From a virus (taxonomy: Duplodnaviria; Heunggongvirae; Uroviricota; Caudoviricetes), in IMG/VR virus record IMGVR_UViG_3300012974_000295: a stretch of 5,062 nucleotides of DNA; one strand, 5' to 3'. This document shows positions 2,378-5,062 of this stretch, piece by piece (within the stretch, counting starts at the first letter, position 1; each line of letters starts with the position of its first letter). The position numbers and the translations under genes were made by a program. A model generated the notes under the pieces. The model saw only the letters and a list, made by a program, of their open reading frames with translations, was not told the origin of the DNA and made no database searches.

Positions 2378-2425
2378 TTTGCTGCTCCTCATCATATCGA
2401 CCCTGCAAGGTCGGTTGGTTTCTCC

Positions 2426-2514
2426 ACAAAACAGAGAAGAACACCTGCGGTGGCAGCCGCCCGGATGGATTGGGTTATGAGCCCGTCGTCCGGTGATGCT
2501 CTTCTCTGTTTTGT
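2426..2514 (-). repeat. Long inverted repeat (15 bp perfect, 16/17 extended) enclosing a 55-nt GC-rich core; predicted compound RNA hairpin in the yfdP 5' leader
   Basis: 2426-2442 ACAAAACAGAGAAGAAC is the reverse complement of 2498-2514 GCTCTTCTCTGTTTTGT with one mismatch. The core contains nested small inverted repeats (GCGG/CCGC 2447-2460, GGG/CCC 2472-2484, CCGG/CCGG 2461-2493). The element ends 49 nt upstream of the yfdP ATG. Confidence 0.5.
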
Positions 2515-2560
2515 AAAAAGAGCGGTACCAGCCGGAAGCAAGTGTACAAACTGGTACCGC
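2515..2560 (-). terminator. Candidate intrinsic terminator within the early-left leader (minus strand)
   Basis: Perfect 10-bp stem GCGGTACCAG / CTGGTACCGC (2522-2531 and 2551-2560, 7/10 GC) followed on the minus strand by UCUUUUU (2521-2515). The 19-nt loop is larger than typical. There is no U-tract on the plus strand, so any activity is minus-strand specific. Confidence 0.4.
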
Positions 2561-2985
2561 CAAAGCAGTGGCTGTTGTGGTGACCGGTGCTGATCTCCGG
2601 CTTGCGGTTATTTCAGACTCTCACGGGTGTTTAATTGCCCCGCCGAACAGCTCTTTTCCGCAATAGCTGCAATGTCTTTCGCGCATCAGCCTGCGCATTC
2701 ACCACAACGTTGAGAGCACTTAGCCAGTTACGGCACCACACTTTGTCGCGGTTCCATAAATGCCCTCATCGTTGCACCCTGGTCTCTTCCCAGGTGTCAA
2801 ACCGAACCGCCACGCTGGTTAGGCGTCTTATCAGCATCATCATTGACTTGCACATTCCGGCTACCTGGTTTGTTTGCCCGAGCAAGGAGTGGATTGTCCC
2901 CTTTAACGTCCCCAGACCGCTAACGACGCATGTGCCATACGCCGTGTTACAACCAAATTTTGTTAGTACCTTGTTTGTTGGTCTG
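2561..2985 (-). ncRNA. Candidate structured noncoding leader or ncRNA transcribed from the pL-like promoter (no N-like ORF present)
   Basis: Every minus-strand frame is broken by stops every 10-60 codons. The only long ORFs (2635-3003 plus, 2766-3044 minus) are Arg/Cys/His/Thr-rich and not protein-like. By hand count the region is about 55% GC against roughly 30-40% for the adjacent repressor gene. Several local inverted repeats are present (e.g. GGTCTGG 2980-2986 with CCAGACC 2912-2918). Boundaries are approximate. Confidence 0.3.
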
Positions 2986-2991
2986 GAAAGA

Positions 2992-3020
2992 AAGATAAAA
3001 TGAAGTTGCGCATTATGCAA
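2992..3020 (-). promoter_or_regulatory. pL-like early-left promoter (candidate)
   Basis: On the minus strand, TTGCAT (3020-3015, inside an operator site) is followed by a 17-nt spacer and TATCTT (2997-2992). Predicted start is near 2985, reading toward yfdP. Confidence 0.4.
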
Positions 3021-3044
3021 GTGTTTTTGTTGCGAGATATGCAA
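3006..3044. promoter_or_regulatory. OL-like operator pair: two 15-bp imperfect palindromes
   Basis: TTGCGCATTATGCAA (3006-3020) and TTGCGAGATATGCAA (3030-3044) have centres 24 bp apart. They share the TTGCG...GCAA pattern with the sites between the cI-like and cro-like genes. Confidence 0.5.
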
Positions 3045-3050
3045 TTTGAT

Positions 3051-3079
3051 GGGTAATGAAAAGCCACCTTCGGGTGGCT
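3051..3079 (-). terminator. Intrinsic terminator downstream of the repressor gene (minus strand)
   Basis: 7-bp stem AGCCACC / GGTGGCT (3062-3068 and 3073-3079) with a 4-nt loop, followed on the minus strand by UUUUCAUU. It lies about 20 nt beyond the repressor stop codon. The plus-strand tail is not U-rich. Confidence 0.55.
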
Positions 3080-3099
3080 AATTGATGAGGAGGTAAGGG

Positions 3100-3792
3100 T
3101 TAATTGTGTCGCTTAAGGGTTTGTGACTGGCTGATTAAGACCTTTCCAAAGACCATAAACCGGTGTTCATTTTCGCTGGTAATTCCCCATTCACGGTAAA
3201 TCTGGTTATCAGAAATCACCAGTAGTTTGTCAGGTATCATTTGCAGTCGTTTGACATAAATTTTATCATCAAAACCAAATACATAGATACCATCTCCATC
3301 AAACTGATTGATACTGACATCAACGAAGATGAGATCTCCTGGCTCAATGGTTGGACACATACTGTCCCCACGAACGTTGATTACTTTAATGTGATTTGCT
3401 GGCCGTCCGCCAAACATCGATACAGCATTATCAGTTCTGTATTCAATGGCATGAATCACATCAATGACATCACCGCCCTGGATAAGGCCATTTCCCGCAC
3501 TGGCACTGATATCCAGCATTTCAATACGGAATACATCCTTCACCTGCGCAACATCCTCACTAATACTGTTTTTACATACAGTATTACTTTTGAAGTCTGA
3601 GGTAAAGAGATCAGCAATATCAACACCTAAGCTCCTGGCAATATTACTCAGGGCTTGTTCAGTGAATTGTTTCTGCTTACCTGTTTCCAGGCGCGAGATA
3701 TTTGCCGCATCCACTCCTATTGCTTCAGCGAGATCGGCGATTTTCATGTTCTTCGCTTGGCGAAGTTGTCTGACTCGATTTCCTATGTTCAT
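3100..3792 (-). CDS. cI-like prophage repressor: N-terminal XRE-type HTH plus C-terminal LexA-like S24 peptidase autocleavage domain (230 aa)
   Basis: N-terminus RVRQLRQAKNMKIADLAEAIGVDAANISRLETGK is a classic HTH. The C-terminal domain has the Ser-Lys dyad context (VRGDSMCPTIEPGDLIFVD and YVKRL) and a candidate Ala-Gly cleavage site (SASAGNG). It is divergent from the cro-like gene. There is no SD upstream of the ATG at 3792. Confidence 0.85.
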   Translation of the reverse strand: MNIGNRVRQLRQAKNMKIADLAEAIGVDAANISRLETGKQKQFTEQALSNIARSLGVDIADLFTSDFKSNTVCKNSISEDVAQVKDVFRIEMLDISASAGNGLIQGGDVIDVIHAIEYRTDNAVSMFGGRPANHIKVINVRGDSMCPTIEPGDLIFVDVSINQFDGDGIYVFGFDDKIYVKRLQMIPDKLLVISDNQIYREWGITSENEHRFMVFGKVLISQSQTLKRHN

Positions 3793-3798
3793 GCGTTT

Positions 3799-3827
3799 AT
3801 TACATTTCTTTATTGCGCGTTAAGCAA
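3799..3827 (-). promoter_or_regulatory. PRM-like promoter for the repressor gene, predicted to give a leaderless mRNA
   Basis: On the minus strand, TTGCTT (3827-3822) is followed by a 17-nt spacer and TGTAAT (3804-3799). The -10 ends 6 nt before the ATG at 3792, so the predicted start is at or next to the A of the ATG, as for lambda cI from PRM. The -35 overlaps operator site 3813-3827. Confidence 0.35.
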
Positions 3828-3875
3828 ATCAACTTGCGCAAAATATTTGCGTGAAATAATATGCTCATCACGCAA
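3813..3875. promoter_or_regulatory. OR-like tripartite operator: three sites with centres 24 bp apart
   Basis: Sites are TTGCGCGTTAAGCAA (3813-3827), the palindrome CGCAAA-ATA-TTTGCG (3837-3851, overlapping TTGCGCAA at 3834-3841) and ATGCTCATCACGCAA (3861-3875, reverse complement TTGCGTGATGAGCAT). Centres fall at 3820, 3844 and 3868. The half-sites TTGCG/CGCAA are shared with the OL pair. The middle site has inverted half-site polarity and is the least certain. Confidence 0.5.
3834..3862 (+). promoter_or_regulatory. PR-like promoter for the cro-like gene
   Basis: TTGCGC (3834-3839), a 17-nt spacer and TAATAT (3857-3862) predict a start near 3869. GGAGG (3881-3885) lies 4 nt before the ATG at 3890. 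The -10 and start overlap operator site 3861-3875. Confidence 0.45.
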
Positions 3876-3889
3876 TATGTGGAGGTTAT

Positions 3890-4150
3890 ATGCAATCACC
3901 ATTACGGAATGTGCGTAAAGCGCACGGATTTACTTTGCAGCATGTTGCTGCTGGCGTTCAGGTCAATCCAGCGACGCTGAGTCGTATTGAAAGACTGGAA
4001 CAAATTCCATCTATCGAGCTTGCAGAACGTCTGGCCAATTTTTTTAAGGGTGAAATCAGCGAAATGCAGATTCTTTATCCGGCACGTTTTCAATCTAGCC
4101 AAAACCAGAATGGGTTTAAACCACAGGAACAGGAGATAAGCCGTGGGTAA
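3890..4150 (+). CDS. Cro-like HTH regulator (86 aa)
   Basis: Small ORF divergent from the repressor gene, with an HTH segment (TLQHVAAGVQVNPATLSRIERLEQ) and GGAGG upstream. Its TAA stop at 4148-4150 overlaps the GTG start of the next gene by 8 nt. Confidence 0.8.
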   Translation: MQSPLRNVRKAHGFTLQHVAAGVQVNPATLSRIERLEQIPSIELAERLANFFKGEISEMQILYPARFQSSQNQNGFKPQEQEISRG

Positions 4151-4694
4151 GCATCACTGGAAAGTGGAAAAACAGCCTGAGTGGTACGTGAAAGCTGTCA
4201 GAAAAACTATCGCGGCGTTGCCGGGGGGTTACGCTGAAGCTGCTGAGTGGCTGGATGTAACAGAGAACGCTTTATTCAACCGCCTTCGTGCAGATGGCGA
4301 TCAGATTTTCCCGCTGGGATGGGCAATGATTTTACAGCGCGCTGCTGGCACTCACTACATTGCGGATGCTGTCGCACAGTCTGCTGGTGGGGTGTTTGTA
4401 TCGCTTCCTGAAATTGAGGAAGTAGAGAACGCCGATATAAACCAGCGCCTGCTGGAAGTCATCGAACAAATCGGGAGTTACTCAAAGCAGATTCGTTCGG
4501 CAATCGAAGATGGGGTAGTGGAGCCACACGAGCAGACAGCAATTAATGATGAGTTGTATCTGTCAATTTCGAAGCTCCAGGAGCATGCGGCACTGGTCTA
4601 CAAAATTTTCTGCGCTCCAGAAAAGAGTGACGCCCGCGAGTGTGCAGCTCCGGGCGTCGTGGCGTTTTGTGTCTGTGGAGAAACTAACGCATGA
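4143..4694 (+). CDS. cII-position regulatory protein (183 aa); possibly a CII-like/CP76- or YdaT-like regulator
   Basis: GTG start at 4143 with AGGAG (4131-4135) 7 nt upstream, translationally coupled to the cro-like gene. Protein-like composition with a possible HTH around AEWLDVTENALFNRLRADG. Function is inferred mainly from gene position; family assignment is unverified. Confidence 0.55.
   Translation: MGKHHWKVEKQPEWYVKAVRKTIAALPGGYAEAAEWLDVTENALFNRLRADGDQIFPLGWAMILQRAAGTHYIADAVAQSAGGVFVSLPEIEEVENADINQRLLEVIEQIGSYSKQIRSAIEDGVVEPHEQTAINDELYLSISKLQEHAALVYKIFCAPEKSDARECAAPGVVAFCVCGETNA
4619..4658 (-). terminator. Candidate minus-strand intrinsic terminator inside the 3' end of the cII-position gene (oop-like antisense RNA terminator)
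   Basis: Perfect 8-bp GC-rich stem GACGCCCG / CGGGCGTC (4629-4636 and 4651-4658), with an extra GAG/CTC pairing inside the loop. On the minus strand it is followed by ACUCUUUUCU (4628-4619). On the plus strand a U-run starts only 6 nt after the stem. Confidence 0.35.
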
Positions 4695-5062
4695 ACAGTT
4701 TAACGGCAAATAACCGTTTGTCGCAACAGCTGGTGGTCAGCGTCTCTGAACACCTGTTGTTACGGCATGAATGCAGATTACCAAATCACCAGGCTGTAAG
4801 TAACCACAGAGAACTTTACCTGACTGTGGGGGGCGAGTTGTGCAGGAACTTAACCGCTGGTTTCGTGACGGAAGAGGGCTTTATGTTCATGTTATTCGTT
4901 GGGAACCAGAAACACAGCGCGTTATCTATCTTCGCAAAGACTACCCGCATGAGTGCTTTAGTCCTTTGTGGAAATTCAGGCGTGATTTTGTTGAGTGTGA
5001 CGGACCACCAACACATTGATTCTGCCATTCCGGGACGTTACACTGTTCAGGCACCTTATAAA
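4691..5062 (+). CDS. Hypothetical protein, partial (5' end in window, runs off the right edge); position suggests first replication-region gene
   Basis: The ATG at 4691 overlaps the TGA of the upstream gene (ATGA) and GGAG lies 10 nt upstream. The frame is open for 124 codons to the window edge. An alternative small ORF in another plus frame (GTG 4840 to TGA 5019, 60 aa) also looks protein-like, so the frame is unresolved. Confidence 0.35.
   Translation, partial: MNSLTANNRLSQQLVVSVSEHLLLRHECRLPNHQAVSNHRELYLTVGGELCRNLTAGFVTEEGFMFMLFVGNQKHSALSIFAKTTRMSALVLCGNSGVILLSVTDHQHIDSAIPGRYTVQAPYK

Follow-up and report, generated by a model that had tools for sequence, protein, structure and literature searches.

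The question raised by this locus is which sites the repressor of a lambda-like genetic switch would occupy, and from where the genes on either side of those sites would be transcribed. The window, i.e. the whole stretch of 5,062 nucleotides that was analysed, is 99.9% identical to PhiR63_1 and 91-98% identical to mEp460, Stx2a_1447 and SfII. The region governs immunity (repressor/anti-repressor control) in a prophage that is common in E. coli and of the mEp460/SfII type; among 5,426 complete genomes of this species, 735 contain at least 80% of positions 2400-4200. Over the same interval the immunity regions of mEp460, PhiR63_1, Stx2a_1447/WGPS2, 1720a-02, phiSTEC1575-Stx2k and SfII are the same DNA (91-99.9%). 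Several of these phage records name the genes cI, cro and cII, and that of SfII also annotates a terminator. Operators and promoters are unannotated in these records.

A set of 298 related loci was used for comparison, giving 129 distinct OR and 204 distinct OL haplotypes with repressors that are 66-100% identical. Sequences, conservation, geometry and protein domains were read directly from this material, and from them we infer the protein bound at each site, the points where transcription starts, cooperativity and inducibility. A conventional lambda-style CI/Cro switch had been proposed for the locus in the original prediction, and the gene content, the protein domains and the conservation in the 298 related loci agree with this. 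We consider it likely that the locus is the lysis-lysogeny switch of a lambdoid phage of the mEp460/PhiR63_1/SfII type, operating by the mechanism described below.

The genes are arranged as in a lambdoid immunity region. The cI gene (3792-3100, minus strand) and the cro gene (3890-4150, plus strand) diverge from a gap of 97 bp, and a CII-like gene is found downstream of cro. The cI-like repressor has 230 amino acids. Pfam finds HTH_3 in its N-terminal part and Peptidase_S24 (PF00717, E = 6.6e-19) in its C-terminal part, and the protein belongs to PHROG 4 'transcriptional repressor'. Downstream of cI an intrinsic terminator was found by a terminator scan on the minus strand (3062-3079; AGCCACCCGAAGGTGGCT followed by a run of T), which is present in all relatives and is the one annotated in the SfII record. 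The Pfam HTH model already begins at residue 7 of the repressor, and residues 1-15 are kept at the protein level, so the start of cI is Met1 at 3792 and not Met16. The Met16 start of the mEp460 and Stx2a_1447 annotation (648 nt) was rejected, as it would truncate the HTH domain. The region of the DNA-recognition helix, ANISRLETGKQK, is invariant or nearly so in relatives, consistent with one operator family.

The autocleavage domain that had been proposed for the repressor was found again, in the form of the HTH_3 and Peptidase_S24 pair with a retained Ser/Lys dyad. The catalytic residues of LexA, lambda CI and UmuD have their counterparts in S144 and K181, both of which are also invariant in relatives. 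The residues A97-S98-A99-G100 (ASAG) are invariant in 9 relatives, and an alignment with LexA, lambda CI and UmuD puts G106/G107 at the LexA cleavage column. We chose A99-G100 as the probable cleavage site, guided by conservation. Judging from the domain only, the repressor may be subject to RecA-stimulated cleavage and hence SOS-inducible; DNA damage would then lead to self-cleavage at A99-G100 by S144/K181 and to prophage induction. Nothing relevant to the inducibility of PhiR phages was found in the literature searched.

The Cro-like protein of 86 amino acids (3890-4150, plus strand) carries an HTH_3 domain according to Pfam and is called Cro in the PhiR63_1, SfII and Stx2a phage records. 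Its Shine-Dalgarno sequence GGAGG, read from the sequence, is located at 3881-3885 on the plus strand. Overlapping the end of cro is the gene of the CII-like regulator (4143-4694, plus strand), assigned by Pfam to the Phage_CP76/YmfL family and to PHROG 101, with a score of 169 bits against the NCBIfam YmfL model (cutoff 90). Cro, a helix-turn-helix protein, is presumed to act on the same sites as CI. That the two share operators is an assumption, since the CI N-domain and Cro have no detectable sequence similarity.

The pattern TTGCG-N5-CGCAA fits sites beginning at 3006, 3030, 3813 and 3861, and their sequence and position are kept in the 298 related loci. Exact copies of TTGC-N7-GCAA occur three times in the window (3006-3020, 3030-3044 and 3813-3827; 0.23 by chance), a number reached in none of 200 shuffles, and 3861-3875 is a fourth copy with one mismatch. 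A position weight matrix trained on 68 canonical family sites gives these four sites 16.5-20.7 bits, while the best other non-operator position has 2.65 bits. Six exact matches are found in the 48-kb PhiR63_1 genome, three of which flank cI, and the other three correspond to the chance number. Left of cI, OL1 (3006-3020, TTGCGCATTATGCAA, 20.7 bits), whose position is conserved in relatives, lies over the -35 of PL and its spacer; OL2 (3030-3044, TTGCGAGATATGCAA, 18.4 bits) is found 24 bp from OL1, on the upstream side of the promoter. Right of cI, site A (3813-3827, TTGCGCGTTAAGCAA, 18.2 bits), which is OR3-like, lies over the -35 hexamer and the spacer of PRM, the maintenance promoter, and the OR1-like operator (3861-3875, ATGCTCATCACGCAA, 16.5 bits) covers the -10 and start of PR. 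The positions of the OR sites are unchanged in 128-129 of the 129 OR haplotypes (site A in 129, OR1 in 128). Operators of one consensus thus flank cI left and right, overlapping PL, PR and PRM, as is expected of a lambdoid switch. According to the proposed mechanism, a CI-like dimer, with an N-domain of the 434-like helix-turn-helix kind and an S24 C-domain like that of LexA, would bind these 15-bp operators through 5-bp arms and leave the centre free. Other identities were rejected for wrong symmetry or spacing, namely LexA boxes and the TTGC-N6-TTGC direct repeats of lambda-CII sites, both as generally known.

Five operators had been claimed, two at OL and three at OR. Matrix and conservation bear out four of them, and the exception is the middle OR site at 3837-3851, which has the reverse polarity and a score of -47.6 bits. 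The claimed 24-bp phasing stands for the OL centres of this phage; at OR it depends on the middle site, and the OL spacing of relatives ranges from 22 to 24 bp. Exactly two OL sites are present in 198 of the 204 OL haplotypes, at a spacing of 22 bp (59), 23 bp (108) or 24 bp (31). A distance of 48 bp separates the outer OR centres, at 3820 and 3868, and instead of the three tandem OR operators about 2.3 helical turns apart that characterise lambda, two canonical sites are found. Site A matches the consensus as well as OR1 does, and CI filling site A would shut PRM, so a lambda-like filling order cannot be assumed. These operator sequences are described nowhere in the literature searched, which fits the remark in the original prediction that the operator family was unfamiliar, and a search of the same literature for binding, footprint or start-site data on this repressor found none. 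The motif search in related prophages that had been suggested was carried out on the 298 related loci, with the conservation of the four canonical sites as its outcome.

Three promoters are predicted around these operators, and in each of them an operator arm of the form TTGCnn would double as the -35 hexamer. PL (2992-3020, minus strand) consists of TTGCAT (3020-3015), a spacer of 17 nt and TATCTT (2997-2992), with a start near 2985; the pattern TTGC[GA]N, 17-nt spacer and TA-rich -10 (mostly TATCTT) recurs across the 204 OL haplotypes. PR (3834-3862, plus strand) has TTGCGC (3834-3839), 17 nt and TAATAT (3857-3862), with a start near 3869; a -10 of the form TAA-N-AT (TAATAT, TAACAT or TAAAAT) stands 17 nt after the invariant TTGCGC in almost all relatives. 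PRM (3799-3827, minus strand) has TTGCTT (3827-3822), 17 nt and TGTAAT (3804-3799), and its predicted start, 3792, is the A of the cI ATG. All three are weak against the consensus (7-8 of 12 positions; 7 of 12 for PL), and none, PL included, is listed by a consensus promoter scan. The overlap of the outer OR sites with the PR-like (TTGCGC-17-TAATAT) and PRM-like (TTGCTT-17-TGTAAT) promoters had been predicted earlier and is found again here. Across the 298 loci the operator arms, the promoter -10 hexamers, TTGCGCAAG (see below) and TGTAAT-N6-ATG stay fixed; the centres of the sites and the spacers vary.

A leaderless cI mRNA had been predicted from the position of the PRM-like -10 and the missing Shine-Dalgarno sequence. 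The geometry of TGTAAT, 6 nt and ATG holds in 126 of the 129 OR haplotypes (7 nt in the other 3), with TGTAAT itself invariant in all 129, while the 6 nt between TGTAAT and ATG vary, as do the 8 nt upstream of TGTAAT. A Shine-Dalgarno 4-mer is missing from the 20 nt before the cI ATG in 124 of the 129 haplotypes; in contrast, one is present before cro in 105 of 127. Comparison thus supports the predicted leaderless mRNA well, short of proof, the start site itself being a prediction. On these grounds the maintenance mRNA of cI is probably leaderless, with TTGCTT-17-TGTAAT starting transcription at the A of the ATG.

It is also conceivable, though we think it rather unlikely, that the cI mRNA has a leader and comes from a promoter further upstream, the internal AUG without Shine-Dalgarno being aided by an A/U-rich leader and TGTAAT being kept for another reason. 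Consistent with this, TGTAAT has G at the place of the usual key A(-11), the -35 matches the consensus at 3 of 6 positions, and a CII-family activator is encoded, from which a CII-dependent establishment promoter upstream of cI, with a leadered transcript, would be expected. The promoter scan also gave a better-scoring leftward match, TCCACA-16-TATTAT at 3883-3856. This match was dropped, as its -35 is not kept in relatives: TCCACA is the reverse complement of the Shine-Dalgarno region of cro, which varies. Further points against a leader are that neither TGTAAT nor its spacing from the ATG varies, while the neighbouring bases do, and that PRM of lambda has the same geometry.

Several readings compete for the part of OR between site A and OR1. 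Nine bases at 3833-3841, CTTGCGCAA (TTGCGCAAG in the sense of cI), are invariant in 129 of 129 OR haplotypes; they include the palindrome TTGCGCAA and the PR -35, and TTGCGCAAG occurs once in the 48-kb PhiR63_1 genome. Partly overlapping this element is the middle site of the original prediction, the everted repeat CGCAAAATATTTGCG (3837-3851), in which the arms stand as CGCAA-N5-TTGCG. It scores -47.6 bits with the matrix, at the 12th percentile, and on account of this score and its reverse polarity it is not of the same site class as the other four. With the canonical matrix, no register of the central element of this window scores above zero. In the clade with repressors at least 93% identical (25 haplotypes) the everted arms are invariant and 4 of the 5 central positions vary. 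The clades with 66-83% identical repressors all lack the left arm, their recognition helix being the same. These remoter relatives have instead a conventional site with one mismatch 3 bp towards cI from 3837-3851 (centre equivalent to 3841). Central one-mismatch canonical sites occur in four relatives, and xRGC/TTAC-N7-GCAA in whole clades. The entire OR is an imperfect palindrome with 32-nt arms about 3844. A PurR box was considered for the central ACGCAAAT-A-TTTTGCG, which is similar to one, and rejected, since the element has an extra central base and is without the central CG of PurR boxes as generally known.

We take CTTGCGCAA at 3833-3841 to be the probable anchor of an equivalent of OR2. 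According to this, the invariant TTGCGCAA at the PR -35 would most likely hold a weak operator with one good arm in the present phage. In remoter relatives the 15-mer that begins at the PR -35 is a canonical site with one mismatch, the far arm of which would have decayed in this clade, where a CGCAA arm 3 bp further towards cro would give the everted repeat. A doubtful competitor is the original layout of three equivalent OR operators centred at 3820, 3844 and 3868, with CGCAAAATATTTGCG in the middle and lambda-like pairwise cooperativity of CI across 24 bp. It has the merit that CGCAAAATATTTGCG is a near-perfect palindrome exactly midway between the outer sites in an OR that is palindromic about the same point, that invariant arms around a variable centre in the clade of at least 93% identity are the pattern of real operators, and that the OL spacing of the window is also 24 bp. 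Nevertheless, the middle arms have the polarity opposite to all four canonical sites, and a symmetric HTH dimer reading TTGCG-N5-CGCAA is, from general knowledge, not expected on CGCAA-N5-TTGCG. The 66-83% clades, with the same recognition helix, lack the left arm and have the conventional site nearer cI, and an OL spacing of 22-24 bp means that 24 bp is no fixed rule.

The other competitor, which we regard as possible but on balance not probable, is that OR holds two repressor operators only, site A and OR1, and that TTGCGCAAG is conserved as the PR -35 and/or as a site for Cro or another factor. All 15-mers between A and OR1 in this window score at or below zero with the canonical matrix, TTGCGC and the conserved -10 TAATAT are separated by exactly 17 nt, and OL likewise has just two sites. 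What this leaves over is that TTGCGC is a poor -35 (3 of 6), yet nine bases are invariant in 129 haplotypes, which is more than a promoter by itself should need. In addition, TTGCGCAAG amounts to two overlapping operator arms, and in several clades a full operator with one mismatch is built on it.

An additional operator-like palindrome, GTGCGTAAAGCGCAC, is located within cro (3911-3925, codons 8-12), 50 bp downstream of OR1 as measured from its centre. With 8.9 bits it is the fifth best site in the window. This site was absent from the original prediction. In almost all of 295 loci the core xTGCG-N5-CGCAx is kept, the right arm being TGCAT in one locus; 41 loci have a perfectly canonical site here, and about 150 have one with a single mismatch. 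Four-fold degenerate codon positions never vary in the arms and vary freely in the central N5 across the 295 loci, and the site is accordingly preserved through codon choice. Such a codon-held operator within cro would be a clean case of a regulatory site constraining coding sequence.

Transcription from PL would enter a structured non-coding leader of about 600 nt (structure z = -5.8) with a terminator at 2559-2514, in which the published primers locate sRNA-17. The paper on sRNA-17 names ETEC H10407 and UTI89 among the strains that have this leader. No credible ORF was found from PL to 2380, and no N gene. A search of Rfam gave nothing for the whole window at E up to 1 and chance-level matches only for 2380-3000 at E up to 10, and no tRNA was found in the leader. 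What the 3' end of sRNA-17 has in common with K-12 dicF is limited to the terminator tail and a block of 17 nt, and the DicF Rfam model does not match it even at E up to 10.

Two broader alternatives concern the mechanism as a whole. Some other protein than CI, e.g. Cro alone or the CII-like YmfL, may be the main binder of the palindromes; this we judge very improbable. The sequence is silent on the binder, and in most loci the sites occur together with cro and a gene of the YmfL family. However, the location of the sites on both sides of cI, overlapping PL, PR and PRM, is the pattern of a repressor, and one locus without cro (L012) keeps OR1, TTGCGCAAG and site A beside cI. In the e14 prophage a YmfL homologue is combined with another repressor, and the operator-like repeats there are of quite another kind, so the sites travel with cI and cro and not with YmfL. 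Improbable, though less so, is a wiring unlike that of lambda, in which the repressor acts on the wide sites A, OR1 and cro (48 and 50 bp) together with OL1/OL2 some 0.8 kb off. Here, TTGCGCAA and the everted repeat would form a specialised central element (e.g. Cro-specific or a half-site), repression would be looped and of higher order instead of by adjacent pairwise cooperativity, and an RNA-level layer would be possible in the PL leader (terminator, DicF-like sRNA-17).

The preferred CI/Cro switch resembles lambda in several respects. cI and cro diverge around OR, a second set of operators is found beyond cI at PL, and operators overlap promoters; the repressor combines a DNA-binding N-domain with a self-cleaving S24 C-domain with Ser/Lys dyad; the -10 of the maintenance promoter ends six nt before an ATG without Shine-Dalgarno, PRM of lambda being spaced in the same way; and a cII-type gene follows cro. 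Unlike in lambda, the operators are 15 bp (TTGCG-N5-CGCAA) and unrelated in sequence to the lambda 17-mers, there are two OL sites instead of three, OR consists of two canonical sites 48 bp apart and an invariant half-site palindrome, and an extra site is present inside cro. The centre of site A, which lies over the PRM -35, is at -28, whereas lambda OR3 is centred near -19. Furthermore, the CII-like protein is of the CP76/YmfL family and not of the lambda CII family, and the non-coding leader after PL takes the place of an N gene.

A structure search found no solved structure of a close relative of cI. The best match to its N-domain was the 434-repressor derivative 1sq8 (E = 2e-4), a weak similarity. 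In 434 operators the outer bases are conserved and the centre is variable, which is the same logic as here, while the operator consensus of 434 and that of P22 both differ from TTGCG-N5-CGCAA. The e14 prophage of E. coli K-12 (ymfK-ymfT-ymfL) has the same gene order and a homologous, CII-like YmfL; its repressor YmfK is a different S24 protein with just a 39-residue local match, and its flanking repeats are based on GTAC and not on TTGCG, so e14 was rejected as a prophage of the same immunity type. A repressor-type operator within the gene downstream of the lytic promoter, besides the operators at the promoters, is also known from OD of TP901-1, where both the repressor family and the host are unrelated.

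The switch is conventional, its operator sequence is the part that is undescribed in the literature searched, and the layout of its sites differs from the one first proposed. The general understanding of such switches is unchanged by these findings. The immunity type is common, and its carriers include Shiga-toxin phages (Stx2a_1447/WGPS2 and the Stx2k phage) and the Shigella serotype-converting phage SfII. The operator consensus together with the promoter map may be used for predicting homo-immunity and hetero-immunity among these prophages, for mending the start of cI in some phage records, and for designing induction-defective or reporter constructs.

Escherichia phage PhiR63_1, which is lambda-like and has head and tail genes of the lambda type, matches the region 2400-4200 at 99.9% identity and is collinear with the whole of the window from about position 500 onward. 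Identity to the same region is 96-98% for mEp460, phiSTEC1575-Stx2k, 1720a-02 and Stx2a_1447/WGPS2, and 91% across 79% of it for Shigella phage SfII; 735 of 5,426 complete E. coli genomes contain at least 80% of it. The repressor gene (cI, 230 aa, minus strand, 3792-3100) encodes HTH_3 and Peptidase_S24 domains. On the plus strand follow a Cro-like protein of 86 aa with an HTH_3 domain (3890-4150), which several records label Cro, and a CII-like protein matching the Phage_CP76/YmfL family (4143-4694). The PhiR63_1 gene at window positions 4691-5062 (plus strand) is annotated as a 383-aa 'Rha protein', in which Ash and pRha domains are found only from residue 117 on and the first 124 residues are without a Pfam match. 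An overlapping frame (4840-5019, plus strand) has a clear DUF4222 domain (E = 9e-14). The annotated reading frame may be too long, and the true arrangement a small DUF4222 gene ahead of a shorter Ash/Rha gene.

Three exact matches to TTGC-N7-GCAA are present in the window, namely OL1 (3006-3020), OL2 (3030-3044) and the OR3-like site A (3813-3827), where 0.23 would be expected by chance and none of 200 shuffled sequences reached three. OR1 (3861-3875) is a fourth copy with one mismatch. OL1 and OL2 are 24 bp apart and the outer OR sites 48 bp apart. The complete 48-kb genome of PhiR63_1 has six exact matches, of which three flank cI and the other three are consistent with chance (about 2 expected). 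A symmetrised weight matrix was built from 68 distinct canonical sites and applied to the window, giving 20.7 bits for OL1 at 3006, 18.4 for OL2 at 3030, 18.2 for site A at 3813 and 16.5 for OR1 at 3861. An operator-like site within cro scored 8.9 bits and the next best position 2.65 bits. The original prediction had five operators, three of them at OR. Its coordinates and half-sites were right for four, which are solid as judged from sequence, but the middle OR site (3837-3851) is a different element: its arms are everted, with CGCAA-N5-TTGCG in place of TTGCG-N5-CGCAA, which accounts for its score of -47.6 bits. The operator family, which the original prediction did not recognise, appears to be undescribed: such sequences were neither printed nor discussed in the literature searched, which covered the SfV, SfII and ST64B papers incompletely, so that an earlier description is possible.

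For comparison, related loci with repressors 66-100% identical to that of the window were collected from phage records, one genome per species and viral contigs, resulting in 298 loci, among which 129 different OR and 204 different OL sequences (haplotypes) occur. The HTH region of the repressor, presumed recognition helix ANISRLETGKQK included, is invariant or almost invariant, and a single operator family is therefore expected. Across the 129 OR haplotypes the same holds for TTGCG and GCAT of OR1, TAA-N-AT of the PR -10, the 9-mer TTGCGCAAG (3833-3841), TTGC...CGCAA of site A, and TGTAAT together with the cI ATG, while the centres of the OR sites and the spacers between them vary freely. Relative to the 9-mer, 128 of the 129 have OR1 34 nt upstream and site A 14 nt downstream. 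Exactly two OL sites were found in 198 of the 204 OL haplotypes, with a start-to-start spacing of 22 bp in 59, 23 bp in 108 and 24 bp in 31. The proposed 24-bp phasing is therefore correct for OL of the window but no design rule, as the relatives tolerate three spacings. In one Pseudescherichia metagenome-assembled genome (L012, 595-1305, minus strand) cro is absent and a 236-aa Cys-rich ORF abuts OR; OR1, the 9-mer and site A are still present beside cI. This is probably a deleted, defective prophage.

Within the clade whose repressors are at least 93% identical to that of the window (25 haplotypes), both arms of the everted repeat in the middle of OR are invariant; in its centre, the polymorphism profile shows variation at four of five positions, and none of the five is the same in every haplotype. 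This pattern of fixed arms and variable centre looks operator-like. The left arm is missing from all remoter clades, in which the 15-mer starting from the PR -35 (equivalent to 3834-3848, centre 3841) has the form of a conventional site except for one mismatch, for example TAGCGAATTGCGCAA, TTACGACTTGCGCAA or TTGTGATTTGCGCAA, ending 3 bp towards cI relative to the site first proposed. The family-wide OR2 equivalent would then be anchored on TTGCGCAA and, in this phage, have only one good arm. The everted repeat may be a functional replacement for it.

The site within cro, overlooked in the original prediction, is GTGCGTAAAGCGCAC at 3911-3925, corresponding to codons 8-12 and centred 50 bp away from OR1. 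Its core, xTGCG-N5-CGCAx, occurs in almost all of the 295 loci with a placeable cro, one locus having TGCAT as right arm. A perfect canonical operator is found here in 41 loci and one with a single mismatch in about 150; the clade of the window reads GTGCG...CGCA(C/T). Within the arms, the third bases of Leu/Val (TTG/GTG) and Ser/Ala (TCG/GCG) never change; those of Arg (CGT, CGA, CGG, CGC) and Lys (AAA, AAG) in the central N5 are free to vary. This codon choice shows a DNA-level constraint. A simple terminator scan also picked up the hairpin at this site, its T-tract being poor; no T-run follows it in the one relative inspected (L005).

The predicted PR (plus strand) has TTGCGC at 3834-3839 and TAATAT at 3857-3862, and OR1 covers about -9 to +6. 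The predicted PL (TTGCAT 3020-3015, TATCTT 2997-2992) and PRM (TTGCTT 3827-3822, TGTAAT 3804-3799) are on the minus strand, with OL1 and site A, respectively, covering -35 to -21; all three have a 17-nt spacer. OL1 starts exactly where the PL -35 starts, and site A exactly where the PRM -35 starts, so an operator arm would serve as -35 hexamer in all three promoters. They match the consensus at only 7-8 of 12 positions, a promoter scan of the window reported none of them, and their assignment is based on position and conservation. The expected overlap of PR and PRM with the outer OR sites was found, OR1 lying on the PR -10 side and site A on the PRM -35.

That the cI mRNA is leaderless is a prediction, unproven but well supported by promoter geometry and the missing Shine-Dalgarno, each of which holds in nearly all haplotypes. 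TGTAAT is followed after 6 nt by the cI ATG in the window and in 126 of 129 haplotypes (7 nt in three), the bases between them varying. No Shine-Dalgarno 4-mer was found within 20 nt before this ATG in 124 of 129 haplotypes, compared with 105 of 127 in which cro has one, and no in-frame start codon precedes 3792. The geometry equals that of lambda PRM. As a caution, TGTAAT has a G at -11, a normally critical position. In GenBank/RefSeq, mEp460 gp38 (L001 3202-3849) and Stx2a_1447 CI (L006 1246-1893) begin at Met16 (648 nt). This shorter gene is probably wrong, because the first 15 residues show conservation at the protein level and the HTH model already starts at residue 7. Helix 1 of the HTH would be lost, and the conserved first residues together with TGTAAT-N6-ATG favour a gene of 693 nt.

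The LexA-like autocleavage domain of the original prediction is supported by a Peptidase_S24 match (E = 6.6e-19) and by S144 (GDSM) and K181 (VKRL), invariant among relatives, which fall on the catalytic Ser and Lys in an alignment with LexA, lambda CI and UmuD (reference sequences entered by hand). ASAG (97-100) is also invariant, and A99-G100 is therefore the likely cleavage site. The LexA cleavage column of the four-protein alignment falls on G106/G107, both variable among relatives. From the domain we infer SOS inducibility. The nearest solved structures are all distant (a 434-repressor derivative for the N-domain, UmuD' for the C-domain).

About 600 nt between PL and a yfdP-like ORF (2380-2015) are without a credible ORF, and this leader is much more strongly folded than shuffled sequence (z = -5.8). 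Inside it lies sRNA-17 of E. coli K1 RS218 (2709-2516, minus strand), with a published length of 193 nt (PMC7719688). The full-length primers of that study match the window exactly and its Northern probe is plus-strand sequence, so sRNA-17 runs in the PL direction. It gave very few RNA-seq reads (PMC7719688), which would fit PL repression in lysogens. A minus-strand stem-loop at its 3' end, GCGGUACCAG...CUGGUACCGC followed by UCUUUUU (stem 2559-2521, U-tract to 2514), resembles an intrinsic terminator. A perfect-stem hairpin of about 87 nt (2513-2427, minus strand) comes next, ahead of the yfdP-like gene, and expression of the leftward genes may therefore depend on antitermination; neither an N-like ORF nor a known nut/put element was found in the PL leader.

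Parts of the leader recur elsewhere. The piece 2427-2559 is common to SfV, SfIV and SfII at about 96% identity. The sRNA-17 3' end (2514-2562) has a 17-nt block and terminator tail in common with K-12 dicF (L308 2383-2435), TTTGGCGGTA(C/T)CAGTTT and ...CCGC(T/C)CTTTTTA, and DicF of prophage Qin is likewise located in a lambdoid prophage, at the same place in its leftward early operon. This 3' end gave no match to the Rfam DicF model. Segments 2860-2958 and 2573-2721 are 86-95% identical to noncoding stretches of the C1-controlled ban operon of phage P1, where they sit just 3' of tRNA genes. P7, D6, SJ46 and epsilon15-like phages carry the former as well. Many unrelated lytic phages of Klebsiella, Salmonella and Erwinia have 90-93% identical copies of a 44-nt core (2677-2720, hairpin GCGCAGGCUGAUGCGC), placed beside tRNA clusters (loci compared for the two segments and the core: P1, L306 2501-2600; L302 2501-2649; L303 2001-2045; L307 1501-1583). 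ARAGORN found no tRNA in the window. Just downstream of PL-like promoters, e14 (L304 6100-6260) and the post-OL stretches of L003, L005 and L015 have AACAGGCAGGA(C/A)GCCCACGAAGTAGCC in common, which may represent another type of conserved element in the leader RNA. The leader of the window differs but has CGTTAGCGG in common with that of e14.

Compared with lambda, the operators of the window are 15 bp long and unrelated in sequence, OL has two sites, OR consists of two canonical sites and a half-site palindrome, an extra site lies within cro, CII is of the CP76/YmfL type and the N gene is absent. With e14 the window has ymfL in common, whereas repressor and repeats are different. The overall plan is that of lambda, and gene content, domain matches and conservation among the 298 loci agree with the conventional arrangement originally described; the locus is a conventional lambdoid immunity switch.
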